From: an uncultured Bacteroidales bacterium
Lineage (GTDB): Bacteria > Bacteroidota > Bacteroidia > Bacteroidales > UBA932
Direction: 5' to 3'
Length of the DNA: 64,000 nucleotides
NCBI GenBank assembly: GCA_944326255.1
Contig: CALVDG010000003.1
Coordinates: 55,167-119,166 of the forward strand
Shown here: positions 6,138-64,000 of the stretch, in pieces
Numbering within the stretch: position 1 is the first letter of the stretch
Layout: each line of letters opens with the position of its first letter
Translations under genes and position numbers: made by a program
The notes under the pieces: model-generated
Told to the model about the DNA's origin: nothing
Database searches by the model: none
Seen by the model: only the letters and a program-made list of their open reading frames with translations

Positions 6138-6151
6138 CAAACACTAATTTT

Positions 6152-6373: not shown

Positions 6374-6384
6374 ATTTTGAGAAT

Positions 6385-7458: not shown

Positions 7459-7470
7459 CAAAAGGCAATC

Positions 7471-8235: not shown

Positions 8236-8262
8236 TAATCGATTAAATATTTAGATAGAAAT

Positions 8263-14020: not shown

Positions 14021-14022
14021 AA

Positions 14023-14337: not shown

Positions 14338-14375
14338 AATAAACTTACAGCAGGCACAAAGTTATAAAAAATTAT

Positions 14376-16432: not shown

Positions 16433-17176
16433 ATGCAAATAGACATGGAGCACAGCAAGATTGTAATCATCCCGACATACAATGAGAAGGAGAATATAGA
16501 GAAGATCATACGCAAGGTGCGCTCTCTCGACGGGGACTTTCACATACTGATCGTGGACGACGGCTCCCCTGACGGCACCGGCGCGATAGTCAAGGGATTA
16601 CAGAAAGAATTTTCCGACACACTTTTCATCATCGAGCGCTCCGGCAAGCTCGGACTCGGTACAGCCTACATCGCAGGCTTCAAATGGTGCCTGGAACACG
16701 GCTATGACTATATCTTCGAGATGGACGCCGACTTCTCGCACAATCCCGAAGACCTGATCCGACTCTACAACGCATGCGCCTCAGACGGAGCAGATATATC
16801 CATAGGTTCCCGTTACGTGGAGGGCATAGCCGTGAGGGACTGGCCGCTCAGCCGCATCATGATATCCTACGGAGCGTCTTTCTACGTACGCACCGTACTC
16901 GGAATGAAAGTGTACGACTCCACCGCCGGCTTTGTGTGCTACAGCAGAAAGGTATTGGAGACCATTGATTTGGACCGGATACGCATGAAAGGCTACGGAT
17001 TCCAGATAGAAATGAAATACAATGCCTACAGGCTGGGATTCAATATAAAGGAGGTTCCCATCATCTTCACCGACCGCAAGGAGGGCAAGTCAAAGATGAG
17101 CAGTTCCATATTCGGAGAGGCGTTCAGAGGAGTAATCGCTCTAAGATTCAGGAAAATAACCCCAAGGCAACACTGA
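16433..17176 (+). CDS. Polyprenol/dolichyl-phosphate mannose synthase-like family-2 glycosyltransferase
   Basis: IVIIPTYNEKENI, LIVDDGSPDGT and EMDADFSH are typical of GT2 DPM1-like enzymes. The start may instead be ATG 16445 (MEHSK...). Confidence 0.85.
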   Translation: MQIDMEHSKIVIIPTYNEKENIEKIIRKVRSLDGDFHILIVDDGSPDGTGAIVKGLQKEFSDTLFIIERSGKLGLGTAYIAGFKWCLEHGYDYIFEMDADFSHNPEDLIRLYNACASDGADISIGSRYVEGIAVRDWPLSRIMISYGASFYVRTVLGMKVYDSTAGFVCYSRKVLETIDLDRIRMKGYGFQIEMKYNAYRLGFNIKEVPIIFTDRKEGKSKMSSSIFGEAFRGVIALRFRKITPRQH

Positions 17177-18546
17177 TGGGCACACTGATAAAGGACATAC
17201 GCATAGTAAATGAAGGACGTATGACAGAGGGCAGCGTCCTGATTGAGGGTAAGACAATAGCCTCTGTCATGCAGGCATCGGATCCTGATTACGGACATCA
17301 GGTCCATGAGGCAGAAAACTTTGCGGGAGAGGTAATCATTGGGGGCAGTGAGGCGATGCTGCTGCCGGGCGTCATAGACGACCAGGTGCATTTCCGAGAG
17401 CCAGGCGCCACCCGGAAGGGCTGCATAGCCTCTGAGAGCGCGGCTGCCGTCCTCGGCGGAGTAACATCCTTCATGGACATGCCCAACAACAACCCTCCGG
17501 CAACCACCGTCGGACTACTTGAAAGCAAATACGACGCAGCCACCCGGGAGTCATGGGCCAACTACTCCTTTTATATCGGGGCCACAAACGACAATATCGA
17601 AGAGCTCCGGCGTGCCGACCGCAGTAATGTCTGCGGCATAAAGGTCTTCATGGGCTCCTCTACCGGCAATATGCTGGTGGACTCCCAGGAGGCGCTCGAT
17701 GCGGTATTCTCCCTCGACGGATGGCTTATAGCGACCCACTGCGAGGACGAGGCCGTCATCCGGCACAATCTGGAAGAAGCTAAAGCACGCTACGCCACGG
17801 GCATTCCGTTCAGCGCCCATCCGCTGATCCGCAGCCGCGAGGCCTGCCTGAAATCATCGGCAAAGGCTATGGAACTGGCAAGGAGACACGGCACACGCCT
17901 GCACGTGCTGCACGTAAGCACAGCCGAGGAAATTGACATGCTGTCGGAGGCACATGTGAAGCATCCGGGCATCAGCGCGGAGGTCTGCGTACACTATATG
18001 TGGTTCGATGACAGGGATTACAACCGTTACGGAAGTCTTGTCAAATGCAATCCGGCCATCAAGACCCAAGCCGACCGGGAGGCTATAACCGCTGCTGTGC
18101 GTGAAGGCCTTGTCCAGGCTGTGGCTACCGACCATGCACCGCATCTGTTCGAGGAGAAGAAGCAGGATTACCTCCATGCTCCGTCGGGTCTGCCGACCGT
18201 GCAGCACTCGCTGGTGATGATGCTCCAGCTGGCCGAACGCGGCTGTTTTCCCATAGAGCAGGCGGTACGTATGATGTCCCACTCCCCTGCCGACCTGTTC
18301 AGAATTGACCGCCGGGGATATATCAGAGAAGGGTACTTCGCCGACCTGGTCATCGTACGCCACCGTCCGTGGACTGTCTCCAAGGACAACATCGCCTACC
18401 GCTGCGGCTGGTCTCCCCTCGAAGGGACTGTATTCGACTGGGCCGTCACCGACACCTTCGTCAACGGCACACGCACCGTCCGCGACGGCCGCCTCACCAA
18501 CCTCCGCACCCCCGCCCGCCTGCACTTCCGCTCAAGTACGACATGA
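17176..18546 (+). CDS. Dihydroorotase-like cyclic amidohydrolase (class I DHOase/allantoinase fold)
   Basis: 456 aa with DDQVHFREPG (HxH-type metal site), GIKVFMGS (carbamylated Lys context), HCEDE, HVLHVST and ATDHAPH. Confidence 0.8.
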   Translation: MGTLIKDIRIVNEGRMTEGSVLIEGKTIASVMQASDPDYGHQVHEAENFAGEVIIGGSEAMLLPGVIDDQVHFREPGATRKGCIASESAAAVLGGVTSFMDMPNNNPPATTVGLLESKYDAATRESWANYSFYIGATNDNIEELRRADRSNVCGIKVFMGSSTGNMLVDSQEALDAVFSLDGWLIATHCEDEAVIRHNLEEAKARYATGIPFSAHPLIRSREACLKSSAKAMELARRHGTRLHVLHVSTAEEIDMLSEAHVKHPGISAEVCVHYMWFDDRDYNRYGSLVKCNPAIKTQADREAITAAVREGLVQAVATDHAPHLFEEKKQDYLHAPSGLPTVQHSLVMMLQLAERGCFPIEQAVRMMSHSPADLFRIDRRGYIREGYFADLVIVRHRPWTVSKDNIAYRCGWSPLEGTVFDWAVTDTFVNGTRTVRDGRLTNLRTPARLHFRSSTT

Positions 18547-18710
18547 TGGCCCTTGAGACTGTCAACAACGCCTACCTGATTGACAAAGAGAGCATCACCG
18601 GAGAGTAGTTCATGGCCATACCGCATCCAGTATGCTTTATTCACTTCACGCGAGATCCTTCACCCAACCCGTCCCCCTGCATACATCCAGGCATAAACGA
18701 AACCGGGTCG

Positions 18711-20876
18711 TCAGCCGATGAGCTCGAGGGCGATGCGGTTGCGCTGGAGGTCGACGTCGATGACACGGACACGGACATGCTGATGTACTTTGAGGACATC
18801 GGAGGGACGGGCCACACGGCGATGACGGCCGTCAGCACCGACCGAGCCCATACGGGAAACGTGAATCAGACCATTCTGCTTGATACCGAAATCCACAAAC
18901 GCCCCGAAGTCAGTCACATTGGTCACGATACCGGGCAGTTCCATTCCAGGCTTGACATCTTCTATAGTGTGTATGTCCTCGGCGAACTCCAGCACCTTGA
19001 ACGAGGCCCTGGGATCCCGGCCCGGCTTGTCCAGCTCCTGCATGATGTCGGTCAGGGTCGGCATACCCACCTCGTCGGACACGTATGCCTTCAGGTCTAC
19101 AGCATCCCGCAGTTCCTTGCGGGCGATAAGCTCGGCCACATCCACACCGGCATCAGCAGCCATCTTCTTGACCAGCGGATAACGCTCGGGGTGAACGGCG
19201 GTATTGTCCAGAGGATCAGCCGCACCCGGTATGCGCAGAAAGCCGGCGCACTGCTCGAAAGCCTTGTCTCCAAGCCTTTTGACTTTAAGCAGTTCACGGC
19301 GTGATGCAAATGCCCCGTGCTCGTCACGGTACTCTACGAGATTGCGGGCCATGGCCGGACCTACACCCGACACGTATGCGAGAAGGTGCCGTGAAGCCGT
19401 ATTGAGATTGACGCCCACGCTGTTGACACAGTTCTCCACCACCTCGTCCAAACGCTCTTTCAGCAGAGTCTGATCCACATCGTGCTGGTACTGTCCCACC
19501 CCTATCGACTTAGGATCTATCTTCACCAACTCGGCCAGCGGGTCCATGATACGCCGTCCGATGGATACGGCTCCGCGCACAGTCACATCGTATTCCGGGA
19601 ACTCCTCCCGGCCGACGGGCGAAGCCGAATACACCGATGCCCCGTCCTCGCTCACCGAATACACCCGCACACCCTCCGGCAGGGCTATCTTCTTGATGAA
19701 TGCATCCGTTTCCCTTCCGGCCGTACCGTTACCGATGGCTATCACCTCTATCTTATACGACTCCACCATATTGGATATCTTCTTCATCGCCATAGTTCGC
19801 TCGTTGCGAGGCGGATGAGGATATATCGTATCATTGTGCAGCAAAGCCCCCTGGGCATCCAGACAGACCACCTTGCAGCCTGTACGGAAGCCGGGGTCAA
19901 TGGCCAGCACCCGTTTCTGTCCGAGCGGAGGAGCCATAAGAAGCTCGCGCAGATTCTCCCCGAACACCTTTATCGACTCTATGTCTGCCCTTTCCTTGGC
20001 CGCACGAAGAGTCTCGTTCTCAATAGACGGATGCAGCAGACGCTTGAACGCATCCTCCACCGCATAGTCTATCTCCAAAGCAGCAGCCTCCGAAGGTGAC
20101 GGCTTCCCGCGCAACACTGACGAATATATCCTGTCCAGAGTCCGGTCCTTGTCCACGTCCACCTTCACGCTCAGCACTCCCTCACGGGCTCCGCGCAGCA
20201 CGGCCAGCACCCTGTGGGACGGTGCCCGGGAGATATCTTCCGAGAACTTGAAGTAGTTCCGGTATTTCGAGGCCTCCTCGCTCTCCTGGTCCACGCCCTG
20301 GGCCACCTTAGCAGTCAATCTGCCGTACTTGCCGTATGAGCGGCGCATCATCTCCCTGACCGGCACCGACTCGGATATCCACTCGGCTATGATGTCCCGG
20401 GCGCCGGACAGCGCACTTTCCGCATCGGGAACCTGCTCCGACACATAAGCCGCGGCATCTTTCTCAGGGTTTCTGGATTTGCAGGAAAATATAGCCTCGG
20501 CCAGAGGTTCCAGGCCTTTCTCCCTGGCGACAGAGGCCTTGGTCCTCCGCTTGGGACGGTAAGGCAGATACAGGTCCTCCAGCACCACCGGGTCCAGGCA
20601 CTCAACGATCTGCTTTTCCAGCTCAGGGGTCAGTTTCTCCTGAGAGGCAATGCTTTCCAGTACAGAAGCCTTACGATTGGCCAGCTCATCGAACTTCTGA
20701 CAGTAATGCTTTATCTCCGCCACCTGGGCCTCATCCAGGCCTCCGGTACGCTCCTTGCGGTAACGGGATATGAAGGGCACGGTCGCCCCTTCGGCTATCA
20801 GTTCGACACAGTGCTCCACCCTCCAGGGCGCAACGGACATAAGTTCCGCGATATGATTGACATACAAACTTTCCAT
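18711..20876 (-). CDS. tex: Tex-like RNA-binding transcription accessory protein (YqgF/HhH/S1 domains)
   Basis: PFISRYRKERTGGLDE near the N-terminus, a YqgF-like core (LAIDPGFRTGCK) and a C-terminal S1 domain (GIVTNVTDFGAFVDFG). The start is set to ATG 20876 (MESLYVNHIAE...). Confidence 0.9.
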   Translation of the reverse strand: MESLYVNHIAELMSVAPWRVEHCVELIAEGATVPFISRYRKERTGGLDEAQVAEIKHYCQKFDELANRKASVLESIASQEKLTPELEKQIVECLDPVVLEDLYLPYRPKRRTKASVAREKGLEPLAEAIFSCKSRNPEKDAAAYVSEQVPDAESALSGARDIIAEWISESVPVREMMRRSYGKYGRLTAKVAQGVDQESEEASKYRNYFKFSEDISRAPSHRVLAVLRGAREGVLSVKVDVDKDRTLDRIYSSVLRGKPSPSEAAALEIDYAVEDAFKRLLHPSIENETLRAAKERADIESIKVFGENLRELLMAPPLGQKRVLAIDPGFRTGCKVVCLDAQGALLHNDTIYPHPPRNERTMAMKKISNMVESYKIEVIAIGNGTAGRETDAFIKKIALPEGVRVYSVSEDGASVYSASPVGREEFPEYDVTVRGAVSIGRRIMDPLAELVKIDPKSIGVGQYQHDVDQTLLKERLDEVVENCVNSVGVNLNTASRHLLAYVSGVGPAMARNLVEYRDEHGAFASRRELLKVKRLGDKAFEQCAGFLRIPGAADPLDNTAVHPERYPLVKKMAADAGVDVAELIARKELRDAVDLKAYVSDEVGMPTLTDIMQELDKPGRDPRASFKVLEFAEDIHTIEDVKPGMELPGIVTNVTDFGAFVDFGIKQNGLIHVSRMGSVGADGRHRRVARPSDVLKVHQHVRVRVIDVDLQRNRIALELIG

Positions 20877-52216: not shown

Positions 52217-54283
52217 CTAGAGCTTTTTGGCTTTGAGCTTGGAGTTGACCTTGACATTTACGACCTTGGCCTCCATCTCACCCATCTGAGGTACGACCAT
52301 CTTCATTACCGAAGGATACTTGACACCATATTTGGTCGTCATGTACTCTACATAATAGGTCTCGGCTGACTGGCCCATAGCTGATTCTACAGTCTTTACC
52401 TTGGCTCCGGTCTCGACATCGTAATAATCTACAGTCACAGTGCCGGCAGCATCTGTACTCTTTACCTTATAGGCATCGCGTCCGTCCACGGCCTCGATAC
52501 CGGTCAGTTCATAGCCGTCAGTGCCGAGCATCTCAGGGTAAGGATACAGGTCACTCTCGCTGACCACGGTTGCAATCTGAGCCGGATCAGTCAGTTCCTG
52601 GGTTCCGCCCATAGGAGAGCCCACTGTCAGGGTACCGTTCACAAGCTTTATAGATGACATCACCTGACCGCCCATGGACTGTGTCTGCGAGAAAGCCTTC
52701 TCGGCAGGAATCATCTTAACGGTATTGGAAATGGTCATCCCCTGGACAGTCATGTCTGTCTGCACGGTTATGTCCTTGATGCCCTCGATAAGCTCACGGC
52801 CTCCGAGATAGTTGAAATAGTTGTCGAACACGGTCTGGACTGTCACGTCGGCTGCAACCTCCTTGCGTTCGATGGGCTTGCCCTCGAAGTCAAGCTCTAC
52901 GACCACTCCGTCTGAGTCATACTGGGCCAGAGCGGGAAGCACTGAAGGATCACCCACGCAGAACCAATACATGTTGTCGGGATCGAAGTACTTGGCCACC
53001 ACGGCACGGATATCGTCAAGTGTCAGGGCATCCAGTCTCTGAAGATAAGTAGCGTAGTAGTCATCGGGCAGACCATAACGCTCAACCGAGTAAGCGAAGC
53101 TGGCGATGGTTCCTGAAGATTCCAGCGAACGGGAGAAGTCTCCGGCATACATGGTCTTGAACTTCTCCAGATCATCCTCGGTATAGTCTCCGTCCATCAT
53201 GTTCTGCAGCTCAATGCGCATCTGCACGAAGGAACTGTCGGTAGCGTTGCCGTTGACATCGCCGCCGGCGCTGAACGAACCGGATATCTCATCTGAGCTT
53301 ACGCTGGAGTAGACTCCGTAGGTATATCCGTGAGTCTCACGGAGGTTGCGGAACAGCTTGGCGTCAAATCCGCCTCCGCCATAGATGGCATTGGCAATAC
53401 TCAGGGCCATACGGTCCTCAGAGTCAGGAGTGAGGGTAATGGGAGCCATCATCTCGATCGTGGACTGCACTGCGCCGTCCTTGGGAGAGAATACTACCTG
53501 GATGCCCTCGGGACGGTTGACTGCGGGGTCCTCATGGGTGAGAATCTCGCCCTTCTCCCACTTGCTGAGATATTTCTCGCAGATAGCCTTGGCCTGCTCA
53601 AGATTCATGTCACCGACAATGATGACAATCGCGCTGTTGGGAATGATGAAGTTCTCGTAGTACTCGCGGCAGTCATCTGTCGTGATGGCCTCTACAGTAG
53701 CCTCTGTCATGATGTCGCTGTAGGCATGTCCTTCAGGATATACCGTCGCGGTCATGATATTGCTAAGAATGGCACCCGGAGATGTACGGGACATCTGGAG
53801 TCCACCGAGAGCCTGGTCCTTTATCTTGTCCAGCTCTTCCTGAGGGAATGTGGGGTTGTAGAGCACATCTGTGAGGATGTCCATCATCTTGTCAGTGTAC
53901 TTGGTAAGGGTCATGAAACCGATGGAGCGGGAACCGGTACGGAATGTGGCGCCGAGGAAATCCACCTCGTTGTTGAGCTGGTCAGCAGTACGGTTTACAG
54001 TTCCCCTGCCCCAGAGGTCACCGAAGAAAGAAGACTCGCCTGCTTTCTCCCCTTCCATATACGGATCTACTATAAAATTGATATTGAAGTTGACGACAGG
54101 ACGGTCATGGTCCTCCACGAGGATGACGCGGAGACCGTTGTCCAGAGTGAATTTCTCGAAGTCACCGAGCTGAACCACGGGTGCGGGACCGGCTTCGGGA
54201 GCCTTGCTTCTGTCTATCTGCGCGCTCAGCTGGAAGAGGGACAGCAGGGCGGCCGTCAATGTAAGTGTAAGTATCTTTTTCAT
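52217..54283 (-). CDS. M16-family (pitrilysin-like) peptidase, non-catalytic partner with a C-terminal extension
   Basis: About 688 aa with a signal peptide (MKKILTLTLTAALLSLFQLSAQ) and M16 N/C domains, but no HxxEH motif. The start is set to ATG 54283. Confidence 0.8.
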   Translation of the reverse strand: MKKILTLTLTAALLSLFQLSAQIDRSKAPEAGPAPVVQLGDFEKFTLDNGLRVILVEDHDRPVVNFNINFIVDPYMEGEKAGESSFFGDLWGRGTVNRTADQLNNEVDFLGATFRTGSRSIGFMTLTKYTDKMMDILTDVLYNPTFPQEELDKIKDQALGGLQMSRTSPGAILSNIMTATVYPEGHAYSDIMTEATVEAITTDDCREYYENFIIPNSAIVIIVGDMNLEQAKAICEKYLSKWEKGEILTHEDPAVNRPEGIQVVFSPKDGAVQSTIEMMAPITLTPDSEDRMALSIANAIYGGGGFDAKLFRNLRETHGYTYGVYSSVSSDEISGSFSAGGDVNGNATDSSFVQMRIELQNMMDGDYTEDDLEKFKTMYAGDFSRSLESSGTIASFAYSVERYGLPDDYYATYLQRLDALTLDDIRAVVAKYFDPDNMYWFCVGDPSVLPALAQYDSDGVVVELDFEGKPIERKEVAADVTVQTVFDNYFNYLGGRELIEGIKDITVQTDMTVQGMTISNTVKMIPAEKAFSQTQSMGGQVMSSIKLVNGTLTVGSPMGGTQELTDPAQIATVVSESDLYPYPEMLGTDGYELTGIEAVDGRDAYKVKSTDAAGTVTVDYYDVETGAKVKTVESAMGQSAETYYVEYMTTKYGVKYPSVMKMVVPQMGEMEAKVVNVKVNSKLKAKKL

Positions 54284-54304
54284 ATCGTTGTACATGTCTT
54301 AAAA

Positions 54305-55621
54305 TTAGTTCTGTTTGGGAAGATAGTAGATGGATATCTTCTGGGTGGGGTCAATGTATTTCTTGGCGACCTCAAGGACTTTCTCCTTGGTCAGTTTGGA
54401 GTACTGCTCCATAGTCTCATTGACGGAATTGGTGTTCTTGAGATAGGTATAGGCTGTAGCCAGACTCTCGGCAACACCTTCAATAGTGGTGTTGGAGGTA
54501 GCCTCGCTCATCTCCACCATATTCATCACCTTCTGGAATTCCTCATCGGTCATGCCGTTCTCAAGCAGGCCGTAAACCTCAGCGTCTATATCAGCCTCCA
54601 GGACTGACAAGTCTACGCCGTTGGGGATTCCCTGGATCATGAACACACCCGGATGCTCGAAAGGCATCACGCCGCCTGCAGCCATCAGACCGGTCTTCTT
54701 GGTATCCACGATCTGCTTCTGCAGACGGGCGGAGTTACCGGCGGAGAGGATGGAGTTGAACACGGTCATTGCATAATAGTCATCGGTACCGTATGCGGGA
54801 GAAGGATAAACCTCAATCAGCATGGGCATCTGGATATTGTCATAGACGGTATCCTTGATAGGCTCAGTACGCCTGGGCTCCATATTGGGATCCGGACGGC
54901 GGGGCTCCACAGTACCGGCGGGGATGTCGCCGAAGTACTCCTCGATCCACTCCTTGGTCTGCTTGGTATCAAAGTCTCCGCAAACTACCAGCACAGCGTT
55001 GTTGGGTTTGTAGAACATATCGTGGAAATCCTGGAAATCCTGGATAGAGGCATTGCGGATGTGCTCCTCAGAGCCGAGAACGTCGTGATTGTAAGGGTGA
55101 ACCTTGAAGGAGTTGGTCAGAATCTTGGTAAATACGGTGCCGTAGGGCTGGTTGTCGCGGGTCTGGCCCATCTCCTGGCATACCACGTCCTTCTGGGTAT
55201 TCACACCGATCTCCTCAATCTTGGGATGCAGCATCCTCTCGGACTCAAGCCACATTCCGAGCTCCAGCTGGTTGGAGGGCAGCAGCTCGAAATAATAGGT
55301 ACGGTCATTGGAGGTGTTGGCATTCAGAGAGCCGCCGGCCTCGGACACATAGGTAGCATACTCGCCGCGGCCGATGTTCTCGGTGCCCTCGAACATCAGA
55401 TGCTCGAAGAAATGGGCGAAGCCTGTCAAATGGGGCTCCTCGTTCTTGGAACCCACGTGGTACATTACGGAGATTACGACATTGGGAGTCTTGTGGTTCT
55501 GGGACAGAATCACATGAAGACCGTTGTCAAGGTCGTACTCCTCGAACTGGATATTCTGCGCCGATGCGGCCACTGGCAGAAGTACTGCCGACAGAATAAG
55601 GATTAAAAGGTTCTTCTTCAT
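54305..55621 (-). CDS. M16-family zinc peptidase (catalytic subunit)
   Basis: 438 aa with a signal peptide and the inverted zinc motif HFFEHLMFEG (HxxEH). Confidence 0.9.
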   Translation of the reverse strand: MKKNLLILILSAVLLPVAASAQNIQFEEYDLDNGLHVILSQNHKTPNVVISVMYHVGSKNEEPHLTGFAHFFEHLMFEGTENIGRGEYATYVSEAGGSLNANTSNDRTYYFELLPSNQLELGMWLESERMLHPKIEEIGVNTQKDVVCQEMGQTRDNQPYGTVFTKILTNSFKVHPYNHDVLGSEEHIRNASIQDFQDFHDMFYKPNNAVLVVCGDFDTKQTKEWIEEYFGDIPAGTVEPRRPDPNMEPRRTEPIKDTVYDNIQMPMLIEVYPSPAYGTDDYYAMTVFNSILSAGNSARLQKQIVDTKKTGLMAAGGVMPFEHPGVFMIQGIPNGVDLSVLEADIDAEVYGLLENGMTDEEFQKVMNMVEMSEATSNTTIEGVAESLATAYTYLKNTNSVNETMEQYSKLTKEKVLEVAKKYIDPTQKISIYYLPKQN

Positions 55622-55638
55622 ACTTTGTTTGTTGTTGA

Positions 55639-56232
55639 TTAATTATTGTGTTCTATTAGTGTTACTTTTCCGTCTTTTAAAAGATATTTCTCCCCTGTTC
55701 CCGGACATACGGCCGTGCCGTCCTGACCGAACTCCAGACGATAACCGGCCCTGCTCATCCATCCCGTCTGCCTGGCAGGATTGCCTACCACCAGGGCATA
55801 GTCAGGCACATCCTTGGTTATCACCGCACCGGCTCCGACAAAGGCCCACCGGCCTATATCGTGACCGCAGACCACCGTAGCATTGGCACCTATCGTAGCT
55901 CCCATCCCCACTCTGGTAGCGGCATATTCACCCCGGCGGCACACAGCACTGCGGGGATTGACCACATTGGTAAACACACAGGAAGGCCCGAGGAACACAT
56001 CATCCTCACACGTAACTCCCGTATAGACAGAGACATTGTTCTGTACCTTCACATTGTTTCCCAGCACTACTCCAGGAGATATCACCACATTCTGACCTAT
56101 ATTGCAGTCCCGACCGAGAACCGCTCCGGTCATAATATGGGAAAAATGCCATATGCGTGTCCCTTCCCCTATGCTGCATCCGTCATCTATGACAGCAGTC
56201 TCATGTGCGAAATATCCTCGTTCCATAGTCAT
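55639..56232 (-). CDS. wbpD: Left-handed beta-helix N-acetyltransferase, WbpD-like (UDP-2-acetamido-3-amino-2,3-dideoxy-glucuronate N-acetyltransferase)
   Basis: Hexapeptide repeats run throughout (IGEGTRIWHFSHI, IGQNVVISPGVVLGNNVKVQNNVSV). It directly follows the wbpE-like gene. The start is set to ATG 56232. Confidence 0.8.
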   Translation of the reverse strand: MTMERGYFAHETAVIDDGCSIGEGTRIWHFSHIMTGAVLGRDCNIGQNVVISPGVVLGNNVKVQNNVSVYTGVTCEDDVFLGPSCVFTNVVNPRSAVCRRGEYAATRVGMGATIGANATVVCGHDIGRWAFVGAGAVITKDVPDYALVVGNPARQTGWMSRAGYRLEFGQDGTAVCPGTGEKYLLKDGKVTLIEHNN

Positions 56233-56236
56233 CCGT

Positions 56237-57376
56237 TTATCTTTTGAAAAACCCGGCCACCTCCCCTGCAATCCGTTCCTGAACCTCTACTGTCAGTTCC
56301 GTATGCATCGGCAGGGACAGCACGGAGTCAGCCAGAGACTCCGCAATTTTCAGGCCAGCCCCGCCACAAGCATACGCTTTCTGACGATGCAACGGCAGCG
56401 GATAATATATCATGGAGGGTATCTCTCTGGATGCCAGATACTCTTTCAAGGCATCCCGCCTACCGTCCTTAACCTTGACCGTATACTGATGGTAGACGTG
56501 TGTGGTGAAAGAAGCCTCCACCGGCAGCTCTATACCGTCCACTCCACGGAGAAGAGCATCGTATCTGTGCGCGGCAGTCCGTCTGGCCCTGCTGTATTCA
56601 TCCAGATGCCGCAGCTTGACCTCCAGCACAGCAGCCTGCATGGTATCGAGACGGGAATTGCAGCCGATTACATCGTGATGATACTTCACGCGCTGACCGT
56701 GGTTGGCCGTCATGCGGATGCGCTCCGCCAGAGCATCATCGTCCGTAAAAAGAGCACCGCCGTCTCCGTAGCAGCCCAGATTCTTCGAAGGGAAAAATGA
56801 AGTGCAGCCGATGTGCCCCAGAGTACCGGTATGCCTGCTGCGGCCGTCAGGATAAGTGTAGACGGCTCCGAGGGACTGGGCATTGTCCTCGACAACATAA
56901 AGGCCATGGGCTGCCGCAAAGTCCAGTATCGGAGCCATGTCACAGCTCTGCCCGAACAGATGCACGGGAATGATGGCCCTGGTCCTGGGAGTAATGGCCT
57001 TCTCGATAAAACGTATATCCGTATTAAAGGTATCGCAGTCCACATCCACCATCACCGGTCTGAGACCCAACAACGCTATCACCTCGGCCGAGGCCACATA
57101 GGTGAATGCGGGAACGATGACCTCGTCGCCCGGCTTCAGACCGAGGGCCATAAGGGCTATCTGGAGGGCATCGGTGCCGTTACCGCAGGGAATGACATGT
57201 CTTGCCCCCGTGTACTGCGCCAGGGCCGAGGCAAAGCGACCGACTGCCGGGCCGTTAATAAAAGCCGAACTGTCGATGACCTCCGCTATGGCTGCGTCGA
57301 TCTCCGCCTTAATCCTCATATACTGACCGTGAAGGTCTACCATCTGAATCTTCTGCTGCATCGTACCCTCCATCAT
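56237..57376 (-). CDS. wbpE: DegT/DnrJ/EryC1 PLP aminotransferase, WbpE-like
   Basis: The PLP-lysine context is FFPSKNLGCYGDGG and the N-terminus IQMVDLHGQY aligns with WbpE. Alternative starts are 57373 and 57361. Confidence 0.85.
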   Translation of the reverse strand: MMEGTMQQKIQMVDLHGQYMRIKAEIDAAIAEVIDSSAFINGPAVGRFASALAQYTGARHVIPCGNGTDALQIALMALGLKPGDEVIVPAFTYVASAEVIALLGLRPVMVDVDCDTFNTDIRFIEKAITPRTRAIIPVHLFGQSCDMAPILDFAAAHGLYVVEDNAQSLGAVYTYPDGRSRHTGTLGHIGCTSFFPSKNLGCYGDGGALFTDDDALAERIRMTANHGQRVKYHHDVIGCNSRLDTMQAAVLEVKLRHLDEYSRARRTAAHRYDALLRGVDGIELPVEASFTTHVYHQYTVKVKDGRRDALKEYLASREIPSMIYYPLPLHRQKAYACGGAGLKIAESLADSVLSLPMHTELTVEVQERIAGEVAGFFKR

Positions 57377-57377
57377 T

Positions 57378-58358
57378 TTACCAGCCGAAAGGATGCGGAG
57401 CCAGAGGCAGTTTCGCAAGGGGATGGTAATCACCCTTGAGGCCAATGGGCACGGCCGTGCGTATCTGGCTGACTATCTCGATGCAGGGACGTGCCTCGCT
57501 GATACGGAAACCTTCGCCTGCCAGTATCTTCTCATAGCTGCGCGTATGCAGTTCGGTGAATCCGGCACTGAACTCGAACTCCTCCCCGTCGATCATGATC
57601 GTGCGGTAGGTACGTTTCTCGCCCTGCACGGCGTTCTCCGGCAGATTGTCCGCATTGATGCTCAGAAAGTAGCGCACGCGGGCCTTCTTCAGGCCGAGAT
57701 AGCCGGCCACGCGGTCGTGGCTCTTGACGTGCACGATATTCTCGCTCACCGGGCCGAATATCCACTGGAGCATGTCGTAGAAATGCACGCCGATGTTCGT
57801 TGCCACTCCCCCGCTCTTATGCTCGTCGCCCTTCCATGAGGCGTAGTACCAGTTGCCACGGGAAGTAATATAAGTCAGATCCACGTCGTAGACCTTGTCC
57901 GCCGGACCTTCGTCTATCTTCTTCTTCAAAGCCACTATCGAGTCGTGCAGACGGAGCTGCAGGATATTGTAGGCCTTATGTCCGGTATCCTCCTCTATCT
58001 TCATGATGGCGTCTATGTTGTGAGGGTTGAGCACTGCAGGCTTCTCGCAGATGACGTCAGCGCCAAGCCTGAGACCGTAGCGCATATGCGCGTCGTGCAG
58101 ATAGTTGGGGGTGCAGACCGAAAGCATCTCTATCTGCCTGTCCGTACCCTTGAGTTTCGAGCAGTGACGGTCGAACAACTCCTGCTCAGTAAAAAAAGCA
58201 GCATCGGGGAAGAAACTGTCCATAATCCCGACACTGTCGAAGCGGTCGTAAGCCGCCTGTAAGATATTTCCTGTATCCTTTATCGCCCTGAGGTGCCGCG
58301 GCGCGATATAGCCACCGACCCCTATCAGGGCAAAATTCTTTCCTGGCATTTCAATCAA
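57378..58358 (-). CDS. wbpB: Gfo/Idh/MocA oxidoreductase, WbpB-like (UDP-GlcNAcA 3-dehydrogenase)
   Basis: 326 aa. NFALIGVGGYIAPRHLRAIKDTGN, CTPNYLHDAH, ICEKP, YNILQLRLH, LTYITSRGNWY and ATNIGVHFYDML closely parallel my recollection of P. aeruginosa WbpB. Confidence 0.85.
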   Translation of the reverse strand: MIEMPGKNFALIGVGGYIAPRHLRAIKDTGNILQAAYDRFDSVGIMDSFFPDAAFFTEQELFDRHCSKLKGTDRQIEMLSVCTPNYLHDAHMRYGLRLGADVICEKPAVLNPHNIDAIMKIEEDTGHKAYNILQLRLHDSIVALKKKIDEGPADKVYDVDLTYITSRGNWYYASWKGDEHKSGGVATNIGVHFYDMLQWIFGPVSENIVHVKSHDRVAGYLGLKKARVRYFLSINADNLPENAVQGEKRTYRTIMIDGEEFEFSAGFTELHTRSYEKILAGEGFRISEARPCIEIVSQIRTAVPIGLKGDYHPLAKLPLAPHPFGW

Positions 58359-58517
58359 ATTTCAATCCTGCGAAGATAATAAAAATTTCCTCAAATTCTA
58401 CCGTCTGCTACTCTTTCCCGCTCCTTTACATACTGCTCCTCCATTGAGAGTTCCTTTAAAAAGTGTCATATTTGTGTCATTAAAAAACATTACCAACCCA
58501 TAAAAAACCTTAAAACC

Positions 58518-58995
58518 TTGCGCTACAGATTCATCATACTCAGCTACAACACAGGTAAGGACGGAAAGACAGCCGTCACCCTTCGTGTCACCAAGAACAG
58601 AAAACGCAAATACATCAATACCGGACTGCGGGCCAGTCCCGGTCCTCGAAAAGACGCGCAGGCTATTTCTCTTCATGTACTACTGTTACGGCATCTCATT
58701 CATAGACGCCGCAATGCTCACAAGGAGCAATTTGGAGAACTGCAACTGCGGCACATACATAGTCTACAAGCATTTCAGCAGAAATCTCAACAACCTCGGG
58801 CTCGCTATCGGACTCAAGGGATTCAGGCTCACGAGCTACGTGGCACGACACACCATGGCCATGACCCTGCAGGAGCATCATGTGCCACGCGAGATCATAT
58901 CGCAGATTCTCGGGCACAAGGACCTCTCCACCACTTCAGTCTACCTCGACAGTTTTGCCGACAGCATCATCGACGAGGCTGCCCGGGTCCTGTAA
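58518..58995 (+). pseudogene. Decayed Bacteroides-type tyrosine integrase (arm-binding N-terminal stub frameshifted onto a deleted catalytic domain)
   Basis: Frame 0 gives RYRFIILSYNTGKDGKTAVTLRVTKNRKRKYINTGL, an Arm-DNA-binding N-terminus with no ATG. Frame +1 gives TRRLFLFMYYCYGISFIDAAMLTRSNLE...LTSYVARHTMAMTLQEHHVPREIISQILGHKDLSTTSVYL, the catalytic R-H-x-x-R...Y region. Only ~160 of the ~400 aa normally expected remain. Confidence 0.7.
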
Positions 58996-59362
58996 GAAGC
59001 CGCCCCTGTCACTTTCACCCCTGCCACTTTTACTATGTCCAGCACATCCCTCAAATATATTACGCTGATTCTCATACACATACATCTCGACAACTTGCCG
59101 GACTACCCGTTTTTTCCACAAAACATCTATTTTACCCCAAGTCCAGCAGACACCCATTTTCAAATCATCTGATTACTAAGTTATTGCATTAAGCACCCAT
59201 GTTGGACTTCTACAGAAGCCCAATGAGCGATATGGGATAAAGCCTGAACCGACATTTTTAGTTTGCGACATATAAGTGTCATATATAGTTATTGCCATCA
59301 CCAACTATCTTATGTGTATCACCTATATATCATATGGTTACAGCAGTAAGACCATTCTTTAC

Positions 59363-59594
59363 ATACGCGTCCCACGAGCGCATCCTCGTCGCGAAGGTTC
59401 GCGAGTACGACTACACCACTGCCTGCGGCGTGTGCGGGTCCCTGCTGTCGCTGTCCCAGGCGGTGGACATCCCCTCGGCCGTCATGCTGATGAAGCGCAC
59501 CGTGCCGGAGTTCAAGTCCAAAAACTCCCCCTACGAGCAGTACGACCTCCGAATCGAGCGGGAGCGGCAGGCCGCCGGGCAGCAGCCGTCCTGA
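59363..59594 (+). pseudogene. 3' stub of an unidentified GC3-rich gene (same codon style as ugd)
   Basis: In the frame ASHERILVAKVREYDYTTACGVCGSLLSLSQAVDIPSAVMLMKRTVPEFKSKNSPYEQYDLRIERERQAAGQQPS* nearly every third codon position is G or C. That bias begins abruptly near 59363, after AT-rich sequence. No family was recognised. Confidence 0.35.
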
Positions 59595-59609
59595 CCCGGA
59601 GTTTTTGAC

Positions 59610-59650
59610 GAAAGTGGTTTTTTTCTTAGCCCCGAATGACTTACCTTTGC
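59610..59650 (+). promoter_or_regulatory. Portable promoter module, copy A (AAGTGGTTTTT - N - TACCTTTG)
   Basis: AAGTGG lies at 59612-59617 and the -7 box TACCTTTG at 59642-59649, exactly 30 nt apart (start to start). The antitoxin ATG is 21 nt downstream. Copy A shares about 33/43 nt with copy B. Confidence 0.55.
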
Positions 59651-59669
59651 ATTAAAGGAGGACTGTATT

Positions 59670-59936
59670 ATGAAACACACATCACAGAAAGACAGACAGG
59701 AGTACGTCAGTGTTCTGAAATTGGCCGTCCAGCTCCCTGACGAGGAGAAGGCCCGCCTGTCGAGGGACCTGATGTCGGAGGTGAGGAGGTCCCGTCTGGA
59801 GAGACTGCAGAGGGAGGTGCTGGACACAGACCTGTCCGAGGACGAGATTCGGGCGGAGGTTGAATATGTCAGACAGACAATGTATATGGAGAGAAGAGGC
59901 GATGAGGATTATAGTGGATACAAATCTGTGGATTAG
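59670..59936 (+). CDS. Putative antitoxin of the PIN toxin
   Basis: 88 aa, charged and helical. It lies immediately upstream of the PIN gene and overlaps it by 35 nt. No family was recognised. Confidence 0.45.
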   Translation: MKHTSQKDRQEYVSVLKLAVQLPDEEKARLSRDLMSEVRRSRLERLQREVLDTDLSEDEIRAEVEYVRQTMYMERRGDEDYSGYKSVD

Positions 59937-60381
59937 CATTCTGATAAAACACAGACTGCGGAAATTGACAGCCGGGCTGTCAGACGGACAAATCACGCTT
60001 GTTGTTTGTAACGAGCTTGTGGATGAGATTATCCGCGTATTCAGACGGCCCAAATTCAGCGGTTGCTACTCGGAGGCGCAGCTGATCACTCTAAGGGCAT
60101 TTTTAGATGAGAATACCGAAAAGCATATCATCAATGGCGCGGTCATGGGATGCCGTGATCCAAAGGACGACTTTCTGCTGGAGCTGGCTGCGGTCTCCTC
60201 GGCGGACTTCCTTGTGACTGGTGACAGGGACCTTCTGGAACTCAGAGGTATCGGCGAGTGCCGCATTATCAGCCCGTCTGATTTTGACCTTCTCCTCAGA
60301 GGAATGGACGCGCCCGGGATTTTCCATGACATTGACTGCTCAGGACTTTACAGAAAATCCTTTCCCCAGCCAGAATGCTGA
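59902..60381 (+). CDS. PIN-domain toxin (PIN_3 / TIGR00305-like)
   Basis: It starts [12 protein letters not shown] (first acidic residue) and continues ...[28 protein letters not shown] (remaining acidic residues). The start is ATG 59902 within track ORF 59860..60381. Confidence 0.8.
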
Positions 60382-60449
60382 CAGCGACTGGCTGCGGACG
60401 TCAGGCTGTCAGGGACGAAATACAACAGAGTAAAAAAGCAAATCATACA

Positions 60450-61760
60450 ATGAGAGACTACAGAATATCCGTGGCCGGGACCGGCTACGTAGGGCTCAGC
60501 ATGGCGACGCTGCTGTCCCAGCACCACCACGTGACCGCGGTGGACGTCATACCCGAGAAGGTGGAGATGATAAACTCCCGCCGCTCGCCGATCCAGGACG
60601 AGTACATTGAGAAATATTTAGCGGAGAAGACCCTCGACCTGACGGCGACACTCGACGGACGCAGCGCCTACTCCGGCGCCGACTTCGTGGTCATCGCGGC
60701 CCCTACGAACTACGACCCTGTGCGCAACTACTTCGACACCTCCCACGTGGAGGAGGTCATCGACCTGGTGCTGGAGGCGAACCCCGACGCTGTGATGGTC
60801 GTCAAGTCCACGGTCCCCGTGGGCTACTGCCGCAGCCTCTACGTAAGGTACTGGAAGCGTGGCGTGAGGAGGCTGAACCTGCTCTTCTCCCCCGAGTTCC
60901 TGCGCGAGAGCAAGGCGCTTTATGACAATCTGTATCCCAGCCGCATCATCGTGGGAGTACCGAAGACGATAGACGGCCCAGGGTTTGAGGAGGAGAACGG
61001 CGCGATAGAGGCCATCGCCGACATCCCGTTCCTGGAGGAGGCCGCGCACACCTTTGCCGGACTGCTGCAGGAGGGAGCCGTAAAGCAGGACATCCCCACG
61101 CTGTTCATGGGGCTGAAGGAGGCCGAGGCCGTCAAGCTCTTCGCCAACACGTACCTCGCTCTCAGGGTGAGCTACTTCAACGAGCTGGACACCTACGCCG
61201 AGGTCAAGGGCCTGGACACCCGCGCCATCATAGACGGCGTGTGCCTCGACCCGAGGATAGGGACGCACTACAACAACCCGTCGTTCGGCTACGGCGGCTA
61301 CTGCCTCCCCAAGGACACCAAGCAGCTGCTGGCCAACTACGCCGACGTGCCCCAGAACATGATGACTGCCATCGTGGAGAGCAACCGCACGCGCAAGGAC
61401 TTCATCGCGGGCCAGGTACTGAAGATGGCCGGGGCGCACGAGTACGACGGCGGCTGGGATCCGTCAAGGGAGAGGGACGTGGTCATCGGGGTGTACCGCC
61501 TGACGATGAAGTCTGGCAGCGACAACTTCCGTCAGAGCAGCATCCAGGGCGTGATGAAGCGCATCCGGGCCAAGGGCGCCACCATCATCATCTACGAGCC
61601 TACCCTCGCGGACGGCAGCACGTTCTTCGGCAGCAGGGTCGTCAACGACCTGGAGGAGTTCAAGCGCCTCTCCAAGGCCGTCATCGCCAACCGCTACGCC
61701 CCATGCCTCGACGACATCAGGGACAAGGTCTACACCCGCGACCTCTTCTACAGAGACTGA
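60450..61760 (+). CDS. ugd: UDP-glucose 6-dehydrogenase (enterobacterial Ugd type)
   Basis: [79 protein letters not shown] and the C-terminal VYTRDLF are co-linear with E. coli Ugd as I recall it. GC3 is very high. The start is ATG 60450. Confidence 0.9.
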
Positions 61761-61786
61761 TTGGGGGATTTTGTCAAAAAATTGTC

Positions 61787-61827
61787 AGAAGTGGTTTTTT
61801 ATTCCGCCCTGAAAGACTTACCTTTGC
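61787..61827 (+). promoter_or_regulatory. Portable promoter module, copy B
   Basis: AAGTGG lies at 61789-61794 and TACCTTTG at 61819-61826, the same 30-nt spacing. The next ATG is 20 nt downstream. Confidence 0.55.
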
Positions 61828-61845
61828 GGAAAACAGTAGAGAGCT

Positions 61846-62076
61846 ATGGCGATATTGGGGAACAGATGCGCGCCTGTCCTGACCGGTGAGTCGGCGAGGC
61901 GCTTTTTGGAGGCGATGGAAAAGGCTGACCGTTTGCCCCGCAGGGAACTGCCTGAGAACTTTTTCAGCGATATAGAGAACTGTCTGAGAAGGTCTAAGGA
62001 ACAGGCCGAAAAAGACAAATCAGAGACTGCAACCGTGGGAAGGCATGAGGAGAGCGGATATAAGACTGACAAGTGA
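61846..62076 (+). CDS. Small antitoxin-like protein upstream of the GNAT toxin remnant
   Basis: 76 aa. Its position and 32-nt overlap with the GNAT stub fit a type II TA layout. No family was recognised. Confidence 0.4.
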   Translation: MAILGNRCAPVLTGESARRFLEAMEKADRLPRRELPENFFSDIENCLRRSKEQAEKDKSETATVGRHEESGYKTDK

Positions 62077-62332
62077 CTGCACAATATCGGTCATCAGCGA
62101 CAATATTAAAATCGACTCATTCTCGTGCGGAGACAGGGAGCTGGATGAGTATTTCAAAGAACGTTCTGTCAGGTATACGTCAGAGCTGCTGTCAAAAAAT
62201 TACGCATTTGTGACTGACAGCGGAGAAATTGTCACCGCTTTCTCATACTCCAACTACTGCATCAATTCACAGCATCTGCCAGGCAATGTCAGAAACAGGC
62301 TGCGGAGAAAGATACCGAACTTGAAATTATAA
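62045..62332 (+). pseudogene. 3'-truncated GNAT-family toxin (TacT/KacT-like acetyltransferase)
   Basis: IDSFSCGDRELDEYFKERS...YAFVTDSGEIVTAFSYS...LPGNVRNRLRRKIPN matches the N-terminal ~90 aa of GNAT toxins. It stops just before the acetyl-CoA-binding (R/Q)xxGxG/A region, and the truncation coincides with the drop to AT-rich DNA. Confidence 0.55.
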
Positions 62333-62518
62333 ATAAATCTGAATTAAAGGATATACGAATGCCAAGAACTTTATAAGAATATTTCACATAGAAATGGAGG
62401 GGGAACATCAGGAAAGAAATGTACTCAACGATGATGATACCATCTTTAAGCGTCTCAGCGTATTCATCCATCCTATAACAAGGAAATAGCCATGTGCCAA
62501 ATGGTTAAAAAGTTTTAC

Positions 62519-62559
62519 AGAAGTGGTTTTTATATTTGATATTATCTTTCTACTTTTGC
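62519..62559 (+). promoter_or_regulatory. Portable promoter module, copy C
   Basis: AAGTGG lies at 62521-62526 and TACTTTTG at 62551-62558, the same 30-nt spacing. Extra TATATTTG boxes lie at 62531-62538 and 62570-62577. The HNH ATG is at 62597. Confidence 0.55.
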
Positions 62560-62596
62560 AACAAGTAACTATATTTGTTGGATAAAAGGAATAGAT

Positions 62597-62956
62597 ATGT
62601 TCACAGAACAGATTATACAGAAAGTATGGGAGAAAGCAACGATAGTCAAAGGATATAACGCAGCAACGATACGTAAAGACAGTTGTGGCGCATGGATTAT
62701 ACGCTCAGACTATGGTAATGTAAATTCCATCTACGGATGGGAGATTGATCATATTTATCCAACAGAAAAAGGAGGTAAGGACGATTTTGATAACTTGCGT
62801 GCTCTCCAATGGGAGAACAACAGGTCTAAGAAAGATGACTATCCTTATTATTCTGCCAGTGTTCAGGCTGAGGGAAGCGCGAATGTACATAGGGAAAGGC
62901 AATTATCAATCAATCAGCAGGTTCAGGACAGATTACGCGTAATATATAATTTATGA
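62597..62956 (+). CDS. Minimal stand-alone HNH (beta-beta-alpha-Me) nuclease
   Basis: 119 aa. GWEIDHIYPTEKGGKDDFDNLRALQWENNRSKKDD is an H-N-N variant of the HNH motif, like the Cas9/McrA-type HNH domains. Confidence 0.8.
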   Translation: MFTEQIIQKVWEKATIVKGYNAATIRKDSCGAWIIRSDYGNVNSIYGWEIDHIYPTEKGGKDDFDNLRALQWENNRSKKDDYPYYSASVQAEGSANVHRERQLSINQQVQDRLRVIYNL

Positions 62957-64000
62957 GAATCACTCATTTGGGCATAAAGAAACTTTTTAATGATTTTGAT
63001 TACGATTTCAATATAGAAGGTAATCAGAATGTTTTTATACTGACCGGGCCTAACGGATATGGAAAAACGACTATATTGGATATTGTTAAACAGCTGTCAG
63101 AAAAGAACCTGGACTATTTCTATCAACTTCCATTTTCTGAAATTAATATAGAATTTGACAATGACAATGCAATATCTGTAATTTCTAAAGACCTTGAAGA
63201 TGAAAATGAGACAACGGATACCGAAATCGTAAAAGAACGCAAATTAAGCCTTATTTGGAGTCAAAAAGGAGAAAATATATCATCTTTGGACTTTAATGGT
63301 CAGACATTGAAAAACGCGCATAATGTTATTGATAGATATTCCTACCGCGGACTCGCAAATACCGCTTTCGACTATCTTGCAGAAGAGCAGCATGTCGGTC
63401 AATTATCATTGTTTATAAGCGGTTTATCTGTTTATATGCTTCCGTCAAGCCGACTGTCAAGTGTGGAATTCGATGAAGAACAGCACATGGAAATTACAAT
63501 ACTGACTATTAAAGAAGTATCCGACAAATTAAAACATCTGCTAAACAGTTATTATCTTAAGTACCTTAAAACAGTAAACAACAGCAACAGCGGTATATTC
63601 GACAAATTGCTTCAAACCCAGACATCTATCACGGAAGATGAGTATAAAGAGATATCATCGAGATTGTCTCAAGAACTTAGGCAACTGCATGACTGGGGGT
63701 TGTCCACAGAAAAGAGTATCCGTCCTTATTCAGAGGAACACAAAGATATACTGACGGTTTATATCCATGAATTGGAAAATAATTTAAGTATCTATCATGG
63801 GTTATACAGCCGACTTTTGCTATTTAGGGAGATTCTCAATAGTAAACATTTTACAAATAAAACCATTTTATTCAGTCCGACGGAGGGGTTGATTGCAAGA
63901 AGAAAGGACGGCAGCAAACTCGATTTAAGCAAACTCTCAAGTGGCGAGCAACATGAGGTTATTATGTTGTATCATTCTATATTTGAGGCAGGAAAGAAAT
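62953..64000 (+). CDS. ABC/SMC-type (AAA_15/AAA_21-like) ATPase with a long helical insert; runs off the window end
   Basis: Not in the ORF track because it has no stop. I translated 349 codons without a stop: MRITHLGIKKLFNDFDYDFNIEGNQNVFILTGPNGYGKTTILD (Walker A), then ~290 aa of helical insert, then LDLSKLSSGEQHEVIMLY (ABC signature). Its ATG overlaps the HNH TGA (ATGA). Confidence 0.8.
   Translation, partial: MRITHLGIKKLFNDFDYDFNIEGNQNVFILTGPNGYGKTTILDIVKQLSEKNLDYFYQLPFSEINIEFDNDNAISVISKDLEDENETTDTEIVKERKLSLIWSQKGENISSLDFNGQTLKNAHNVIDRYSYRGLANTAFDYLAEEQHVGQLSLFISGLSVYMLPSSRLSSVEFDEEQHMEITILTIKEVSDKLKHLLNSYYLKYLKTVNNSNSGIFDKLLQTQTSITEDEYKEISSRLSQELRQLHDWGLSTEKSIRPYSEEHKDILTVYIHELENNLSIYHGLYSRLLLFREILNSKHFTNKTILFSPTEGLIARRKDGSKLDLSKLSSGEQHEVIMLYHSIFEAGKK

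Follow-up and report, generated by a model that had tools for sequence, protein, structure and literature searches.

In the PARIS antiphage system, a hexamer of the ATPase AriA holds the nuclease AriB, anti-restriction proteins such as Ocr activate the system, and AriB cleaves tRNA(Lys). The nucleases are bound at different sites, AriB at the ATPase-domain dimer interface and, in the Septu system, PtuB between the C-terminal domains of PtuA. Caging of a nuclease by a hexameric OLD-type ATPase is understood structurally in these two systems, PARIS, whose nuclease is of the TOPRIM type, and Septu, whose nuclease is of the HNH type. In the published structures, the ATPase oligomer sequesters the nuclease and senses a phage product (PMC11464382, PMC12065111). 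PARIS has been described as a two-protein system that comprises 11 clades, with fusion in two of these and no mention of an HNH partner (PMC11464382), and OLD-type ATPases have been reported to pair with HNH, REase, or PIN proteins “rather than the usual TOPRIM,” that is, with one or the other and not with both (bioRxiv 10.1101/2025.10.09.681413). Here we describe an operon that encodes both nuclease types together with one such ATPase and that is conserved in dozens of lineages, chiefly Bacteroidales of the gut and rumen. It begins at the end of a 64,000-nucleotide stretch of DNA (the window) from an uncultured Bacteroidales bacterium of the UBA932 lineage (GenBank assembly GCA_944326255.1, contig CALVDG010000003.1, positions 55,167 to 119,166).

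The operon consists of genes for a small HNH nuclease, an AriA-like ATPase, and an AriB-like TOPRIM protein, in that order. The initial annotation, made from the window alone, had proposed a two-gene module, an HNH gene and an ATPase gene in inverted Septu order, and possibly an undescribed variant. The two-gene count was overturned by a third, overlapping DUF4435/TOPRIM gene just past the window end, and the Septu assignment gave way because the ATPase matched AriA best and the HNH protein had no PtuB match; the proposed novelty stood for a PARIS pair joined by a conserved extra HNH gene and fell for a Septu variant. The best explanation, to which we assign a probability of about 0.6, is that an island of ~2.9 kb carries a three-gene defense operon of the PARIS branch (class 4 OLD-type) in which the HNH protein would be a second effector. 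Membership of the operon in the PARIS family, with a conserved extra HNH gene, is by itself highly probable. The kind of system is ordinary, an ATPase-nuclease defense operon of the PARIS/OLD family; the composition appears to be undescribed, because a small conserved HNH gene is added to the AriA/AriB pair. No description of the HNH-AriA-AriB triad was found in the literature searched, the reach of which did not extend to the 2020 Aravind-group survey of ABC ATPases, the likeliest place for an earlier mention.

The analysis established directly which genes are present, their homology, the integrity of their catalytic motifs, the conservation of the operon, and the co-inheritance of its genes. 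An exact look-up of the HNH protein returned 22 contigs, three of which (L001, L002, and L006) reach past the window end and are 99.95 to 99.98% identical to window positions 54001 to 64000; window coordinates equal L001 coordinates plus 52782. The ATPase frame is open to position 64000, with its last 72 codons beyond the window. Extension of the contig, which had been suggested as a check for a damaged ATPase, showed an intact protein of 421 aa in these near-identical contigs, and the Walker B motif (LLIDEPE), which the initial annotation had placed past 64000, was found there together with an H-loop (ATHS). The Walker A motif and the ABC signature some 300 aa farther on, both recognized initially, are GPNGYGKTT at aa 32 to 40 and LSSGEQ at aa 328 to 333. 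The protein had been placed among the AAA_15/21 ATPases of antiphage systems, and Pfam bore this out with AAA_15 (E value, 3.2e-17) and AAA_21 (8.5e-15) matches beyond the cut-off. Among PADLOC models, AriA was best (2e-27), followed by PtuA models, whereas GajA models matched weakly (1e-11 to 1e-12), and the AriA score was in the same range as those of two-gene PARIS ATPases from a plasmid of Salmonella and a P2-like phage of Yersinia. AriA structures (8ux9/8v45) were also the best PDB matches (1.3e-12). Furthermore, K38, LSSGE, Walker B residues D355/E356, H362, and H-loop residue H389 were invariant in 34 homologs. By its motifs, the protein is classed as AriA-like, an OLD-type ABC ATPase with Walker A, signature, Walker B, and H-loop.

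The third gene, present in L001, overlaps the ATPase 3′ end by 35 to 71 nt, depending on the start codon. Its product matched the PADLOC AriB model at 1.1e-11 over model positions 2 to 229 of 236. An AlphaFold2 (AF2) model of the protein (mean confidence score [pLDDT], 91.9) had a single significant PDB match in a Foldseek search, and this was AriB (8ux9_A; E value, 2.7e-4; probability, 1.00), with a TM score of 0.56 on both lengths. Relatives at 41 to 56% identity carry Pfam DUF4435 (PF14491), and one of them is named “DUF4435 domain-containing protein” by NCBI. The acidic residues E54, D103/D105 (DxD), D124, D127, and E129 were invariant in 25 homologs, and E54 is the counterpart of AriB E26, a catalytic residue whose mutation abolishes tRNA cleavage (PMC12409363). 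As modeled, the third gene product is AriB-like, with a predicted DUF4435/TOPRIM core encoded directly downstream on the same strand.

The first gene had been annotated as encoding a 119-aa HNH nuclease, in agreement with Pfam HNH (6.6e-6) and HNH_4 (1.1e-4) matches, both beyond the cut-off, and with the conservation of its catalytic residues. D51, H52, N66, N74, and K78 were invariant in 31 homologs, and N75 nearly so (at least 90%). The features that define the HNH superfamily, a catalytic D-H dyad, structural and metal-binding Asn residues, and a ββα fold, were all present, and the enzyme is predicted to be catalytically intact. Its AF2 model (pLDDT, 96.7) superimposed on Cas9 HNH cores with a root mean square deviation of ~1 Å over 33 residues. 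In a PDB fold search, the ββα-Me core of 33 to 44 residues alone aligned, at E values of >0.5, with the HNH cores of Cas9, McrA, and Gme, and matches in PADLOC, NCBIfam, and PDB were limited to the HNH domains of Cas9, IscB, and Cas8-HNH. The core aligns residue for residue with the Cas9/IscB HNH (HNH_4 type) in the pattern DHI.P...DN......NR.K.D..P, and zinc-binding cysteines are likewise absent; unlike those domains, the island HNH is a stand-alone protein with its own N-terminal helix and without RuvC or a guide-RNA apparatus. Two features are specific to its family, the RKDxCGAW hairpin, which is invariant, and a β-hairpin with a helix at the C terminus. As noted initially, the HNH stop codon overlaps the ATPase start codon (ATGA at 62953 to 62956).

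The three genes recurred together in many genomes. A scan seeded with the HNH protein, using one genome per species, yielded 80 HNH instances in 79 loci: 33 with an intact HNH-ATPase-TOPRIM operon, 10 with an operon that was frameshifted or cut by a contig end, 5 without downstream room, and 32 with other neighbors. The order of the trio was thus kept in 43 of the 75 assessable instances. Six genome loci (L016, L017, L021, L037, L048, and L056) had a frameshifted ATPase or TOPRIM gene. The hosts of the trio were chiefly Bacteroidales and also included Fibrobacter, a Bacilli metagenome-assembled genome, Lachnospiraceae, Elusimicrobiales (Elusimicrobia), and spirochetes. In a metagenome scan seeded with nine closer TOPRIM sequences, 60 of 63 loci with enough upstream sequence to be assessed contained the trio, and these formed 31 clusters at 90% identity and 16 clusters at 50%; distant TOPRIM homologs had the HNH and ATPase genes upstream in three of three cases. 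The HNH-to-ATPase spacing ranged from −59 to +27 nt and was exactly −4 (ATGA) in nine loci. Across 34 trios (L001 and loci among L008 to L083), pairwise identities were correlated, with Mantel r values of 0.78 for HNH-ATPase, 0.69 for HNH-TOPRIM, and 0.84 for ATPase-TOPRIM (each P ≤ 5e-4), which indicates that the trio was inherited as a whole unit. Median identity across trios was highest for the HNH protein (47%), followed by the ATPase (28%) and the TOPRIM protein (22%). ATPase lengths ranged from 302 to 443 aa, with short forms of 302 to 337 aa in L033, L039, L049, L061, and L081. In a neighbor-joining tree of the HNH proteins, those associated with trios did not form one clean clade; with 120 columns, the tree is too weak to date gains or losses.

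The nearest full-length annotated relatives of the ATPase, at 25 to 30% identity, were encoded on plasmids of Salmonella, Rouxiella, Streptomyces, and Bacillus and in the P2-like Yersinia phage vB_YenM_31.17; in the phage, the ATPase gene and its partner lie between cI and int, the P2-like phage defense hotspot. Each of these five ATPase genes is followed by a gene for a protein of ~270 to 310 aa, annotated as a DUF4435 protein in three cases and as hypothetical in two, and all five downstream proteins matched a TOPRIM profile derived from the trios. PADLOC controls gave AriA at 4e-27 and AriB at 5e-47 for the Salmonella plasmid and AriB at 1e-23 for the Yersinia phage. In a rough neighbor-joining tree, the ATPases of the two-gene relatives nested among those of the trios, which implies that the trio represents a branch, or branches, of the PARIS family with an extra gene. 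The island operon shares with PARIS of Escherichia coli B185 (8UX9, 8V45-49) the separate, adjacent, and overlapping ATPase and TOPRIM genes on one strand, and its character as foreign, patchily distributed cargo. It differs in the conserved, translationally coupled 119-aa HNH gene before ariA, and it thus goes beyond the two-component definition of PARIS (ariA plus ariB, or a fused ariAB). Further differences are the shorter ATPase (421 aa, compared with 464 aa for AriA), a very divergent AriB-like protein, hosts that are mainly Bacteroidota, and the absence of the trio from the viral contigs examined. Annotation pipelines probably label such loci “PARIS” and miss the first gene, because the HNH protein matches no PADLOC model except Cas9.

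Several observations weigh against the assignment to PARIS or against a shared function of the three genes. Everything past position 64000 was read from near-identical contigs rather than from the window. The ATPase also matched PtuA models well (1.9e-24). Pfam DUF4435 fell below the cut-off for the TOPRIM protein (2.4e-4; 21.4 versus 27 bits), and this protein is remote from E. coli AriB, with 15% identity in the structural alignment. Against PDB, a phmmer search with the TOPRIM protein gave only a weak match to the RNase M5 TOPRIM motif, and a 25-sequence profile gave nothing significant, so that kinship with AriB emerged only with the PADLOC model and the fold search. The five two-gene relatives had no HNH-family open reading frame (ORF) in any frame within 2.5 kb. 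The HNH family also adjoins unrelated modules (ThsB-TIR plus SLATT, type I restriction-modification [R-M], and unknown proteins), and a Rosetta-stone search of ten longer family members showed no fusion of HNH to the ATPase or the TOPRIM protein; these ten looked like gene-call artifacts or unrelated fusions. Finally, many trio loci are situated in polysaccharide biosynthesis clusters rather than in classical defense islands.

By analogy with PARIS and Septu, we infer an antiphage function, a physical complex, nucleic acid substrates, and a role for the HNH protein, as follows. The ATPase oligomer would keep the nuclease or nucleases inactive and would sense a phage-derived cue. ATP-dependent remodeling, through binding or hydrolysis, would then free or activate the TOPRIM nuclease, whose E. 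coli PARIS counterpart cleaves tRNA in the anticodon stem, and the HNH protein might act on DNA or RNA as a second effector. In the end, the infected cell would be arrested or the nucleic acid of the phage destroyed (abortive infection). Co-regulation of the HNH protein as a second effector is a tentative proposal that we rate at somewhat less than even odds. The different binding sites of AriB and PtuB make two nucleases on one ATPase scaffold conceivable, as a matter of speculation. A single AriA-type scaffold controlling both the HNH and the TOPRIM protein, as a PARIS/Septu hybrid with two targets and with the HNH protein serving elsewhere as a portable accessory, is a possible but doubtful extension of this proposal. 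If such dual control were true, one sensor could direct attack on two nucleic acid targets, such as DNA of the phage and tRNA of the host. The operon therefore raises the question of whether one scaffold licenses two effectors or whether the small HNH protein is a general defense add-on.

The main rival to a second effector is an autonomous HNH nuclease, restriction-like or otherwise defensive or of the homing type, that rides at the 5′ end of a normal PARIS operon and shares its promoter but not its mechanism. In keeping with such autonomy, two-gene relatives without the HNH gene exist, and the HNH family, with 1249 clusters at E ≤ 1e-10, is large, consists almost entirely of stand-alone proteins (90 to 170 aa), showed no fusions, and is found ahead of several unrelated modules; the N-terminal ~75 to 85 residues resemble small viral (phage) HNH proteins (best E value, 3.4e-5), and the island is sharply bounded in different contexts. 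The rival is nevertheless unlikely, since most of the assessable loci in both scans kept the gene order and had closely spaced genes, whose codons often overlapped, and the divergence of the HNH protein tracks that of the ATPase. In addition, a single domain of 119 aa would presumably leave little room for recognition of a long homing site, and of 11 viral-contig loci with HNH-family members, none had the ATPase or the TOPRIM gene. Alternatively, the HNH protein might belong to the system as a sensor, adaptor, or regulator, for example, by nicking DNA as a signal or by gating release of the TOPRIM protein. Its position as the first gene, translationally coupled to the ATPase, is compatible with such a role, and its higher conservation relative to the other two proteins would fit contact with an invariant cellular or nucleic acid partner. 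This alternative is rather improbable, as the conserved D51, H52, N66, N74, and K78, with the nearly invariant N75, suit an active nuclease. To our knowledge, such a role has no precedent in PARIS, Septu, or Gabija, whose extra nuclease is the effector.

A second-effector HNH in a PARIS-branch operon was also compared with Septu, including its retron-Eco7/Ec78 form, which likewise has an AAA_15/21 OLD-type ABC ATPase gene beside an HNH nuclease gene. A two-gene Septu-like module of a PtuB-like HNH protein and a PtuA-like ATPase in inverted order would account for this gene content and for the matches of the ATPase to PtuA models and PtuA structures (5e-7 in PDB), PtuA and AriA being related families. 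It is very improbable, however, as AriA outscored PtuA in both PADLOC and PDB, the nearest annotated relatives are ATPase-DUF4435 pairs, and the AriB-like third gene is conserved in the operon. The HNH protein, a bare 119 aa encoded first, had no match to PtuB at E ≤ 1 in PADLOC models, and no PtuB chain appeared in the PDB fold search, which gave Cas9-type cores. Septu is a two-gene system with ptuA followed by ptuB, whereas the order here is HNH, ATPase, TOPRIM, and the island has a TOPRIM nuclease gene and no reverse transcriptase or noncoding RNA. With Gabija and class 1 OLD proteins (P2 Old), the operon shares the logic of an ATPase plus a TOPRIM domain; it differs in that the two are separate polypeptides and that an HNH protein is added, and the island contains no UvrD-like helicase gene.

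The AT-rich DNA at the window end is a horizontally acquired island with its own promoter, inserted with a UDP-glucose dehydrogenase gene on its left and a DegT aminotransferase gene on its right. An insertion beginning at ~62333 had been proposed from base composition, and the GC content of 0.358 at 62333 to 64000 was indeed the minimum among all 1668-nt segments of the 64 kb (median, 0.536; 5th percentile, 0.488), compared with 0.615 for the upstream UDP-glucose dehydrogenase gene and 0.438 for the GNAT ORF at 62045 to 62332. The truncation of this ORF at the island start, also proposed initially, was corroborated by tblastn: its 95 aa aligned at 31 to 34% identity (E values, 1e-6 to 9e-8) with residues ~5 to 94 of GNATs on Bacteroidales plasmids, one of which, an acetyltransferase in Segatella copri, has 196 aa, so that the ORF corresponds to the N-terminal half; its initial designation as a toxin is tentative. 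Defined junctions were seen in two other contigs. In L007, the match to the island covers 62338 to 63050, and to the left of 62338 only an AT-rich AATTATAAATAAAT is shared, which places the left end of the island at ~62326 to 62338; L004, another capsule-type locus, matches the window only from 62508 rightwards. In L001, low GC content (0.30 to 0.43) spans ~9450 to ~12410 between flanks of 0.52 to 0.65, and the rise above 0.52 at the start of the DegT gene marks the right edge, at window-equivalent ~65190. The GC profile thus gives an island of ~2.9 kb, one promoter region and three genes. L007 (354 to 6746) carries a decayed variant in which the HNH gene is intact and a deletion joins ATPase codon ~33 to the 3′ end of the DegT gene, followed by genes for a 1200-aa SIR2_2 protein and then DarT/DarG. 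The features are listed in Table 1.

Table 1. Features of the operon, its surroundings, and related loci (window coordinates unless an L number is given)
Feature	Position	Strand	Evidence or remark
HNH (ββα-Me) nuclease, stand-alone, 119 aa	62597..62956	+	Pfam, alignment, AF2 model
AriA-like OLD/ABC-family ATPase, first 349 of 421 codons	62953..64000; stop at window-equivalent 64218 (L001)	+	Pfam, PADLOC, PDB
AriB-like DUF4435/TOPRIM protein, 292 to 304 aa by start codon	window-equivalent ~64148/64184-65062 (L001 11366/11402-12280)	+	L001
Island left end and 5′ untranslated/promoter region, GC 0.31	62326..62596	.	GC profile; L007 match from 62338, L004 match from 62508
24-nt element AAAAGTTTTACAGAAGTGGTTTTT	62508..62531	+	Second copy at 61776-61799, weaker copy at 59609
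Three TAnnTTTG boxes	62531-62538, 62551-62558, 62570-62577	+	20 to 66 nt before HNH start codon
Truncated GNAT acetyltransferase, N-terminal half, 95 aa	62045..62332	+	Host-side flank, outside operon; broken off at island start
Trios in glycan context	window 60375-64000; L001 12413-13657; L004; L090 222-7949; L091 1079-8406
Loci with HNH gene beside other modules	L028 4465-6139, L029 5992-7667; L059 2858-4350, L063 5968-7280, L072 5992-7496; L036, L053, L066; L069 5989-8888

TAnnTTTG is the −7 promoter consensus of Bacteroidetes. The promoter proposed in the initial annotation was substantiated by the three TAnnTTTG boxes of the leader, and boxes of this kind preceded the HNH start by no more than 120 nt in 26 of 32 homologous Bacteroidota operons, compared with 0.073 expected per 120 nt; the + strand of the entire window has 14 in all. 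The strict TTTG-N15-25-TAnnTTTG pattern had no match in the window, a −33 TTTG at canonical spacing being absent. A sigma-70 scan, for which neither AT-rich DNA nor this phylum is suited, gave an uninformative 17 sites versus 11.8 expected. The core of the 24-nt element, CAGAAGTGGTTTTT, begins 33 nt before a TAnnTTTG box in each copy, and this 14-nt core had 3 copies in the window versus 0.23 expected; the element probably represents the upstream half of a promoter type that the copies have in common. Since the similarity to L004 begins exactly at 62508, the element may also double as a recombination joint between cassettes. The whole promoter-like element, (C)AGAAGTGGTTTTT, occurs at 59609 to 59649, 61776 to 61826, and 62508 to 62558, each time ahead of a small cassette: an 88-aa ORF with a PIN_3 gene, a 76-aa ORF with the truncated GNAT gene, and the HNH operon, respectively.

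Diverged trios were found inside or at the edge of capsule and glycan clusters with DegT, Bac_transf, NeuB, glycosyltransferase, and epimerase genes. Among the 133 proteins counted in the flanks of 36 loci, Epimerase/Polysacc_synt_2, RmlD, DegT, Bac_transf, and glycosyltransferases led by plain count, together with AAA_15 and TIR_2. Defense genes were often among the neighbors of the trio (DarT, TIR_2, AAA_15, and PD-(D/E)XK, and SIR2 plus DarTG in L007). The repeated occurrence within glycan biosynthesis loci (the window, L004, L090, and L091) might suggest a RecF/SbcCD-like DNA repair or recombination module serving recombination-prone capsule loci, a reading that is very improbable in view of the specific AriA/AriB homology, the two-gene PARIS pairs, including that in the P2-like phage hotspot, the defense genes nearby, and the patchy distribution, foreign GC content, and frequent pseudogenization typical of defense cargo. 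For a PARIS-branch defense operon, the recurrent capsule/glycan location bears on the link between phage resistance and surface variation in gut bacteria.

The 90%-identity cluster of a protein encoded nearby contains proteins of Candidatus Coprenecus (Rikenellaceae, Bacteroidales), a mere hint at the host that agrees with the promoter type. The DNA around the UDP-glucose dehydrogenase gene (58585 to 62332) resembles a collection of small mobile or toxin-antitoxin-like remnants: an integrase fragment (58585 to 58995), the 88-aa ORF overlapping the PIN_3 gene (59670 to 60381), and the 76-aa ORF, which overlaps the start of the truncated GNAT gene (61846 to 62332) in an arrangement like that of toxin-antitoxin pairs. 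Past the island and the DegT gene, L001 carries a PDDEXK_2 (transposase-like) gene and an IS21-type element, IstB with a Mu-transposase-like gene (13897 to 14838 and 16944 to 19259), which fits a recombination-prone neighborhood.

Outside the trio, members of the HNH family were found ahead of genes for a TIR protein of the ThsB type and a two-transmembrane SLATT effector, and ahead of an uncharacterized family of 306 to 368 aa, for which the start codon overlaps and neither Pfam nor PADLOC gave a match. A short, ~100-aa form of the HNH protein precedes type I R-M hsdM genes, and another member lies ~600 nt from a CBASS cyclase gene and a patatin-like gene. The HNH protein may thus be a portable accessory of several defense systems. 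In addition, one Paludibacteraceae contig, L041, carries a tandem pair of different HNH-ATPase-TOPRIM operons (725 to 3171 and 5956 to 8481), ~2.8 kb apart.

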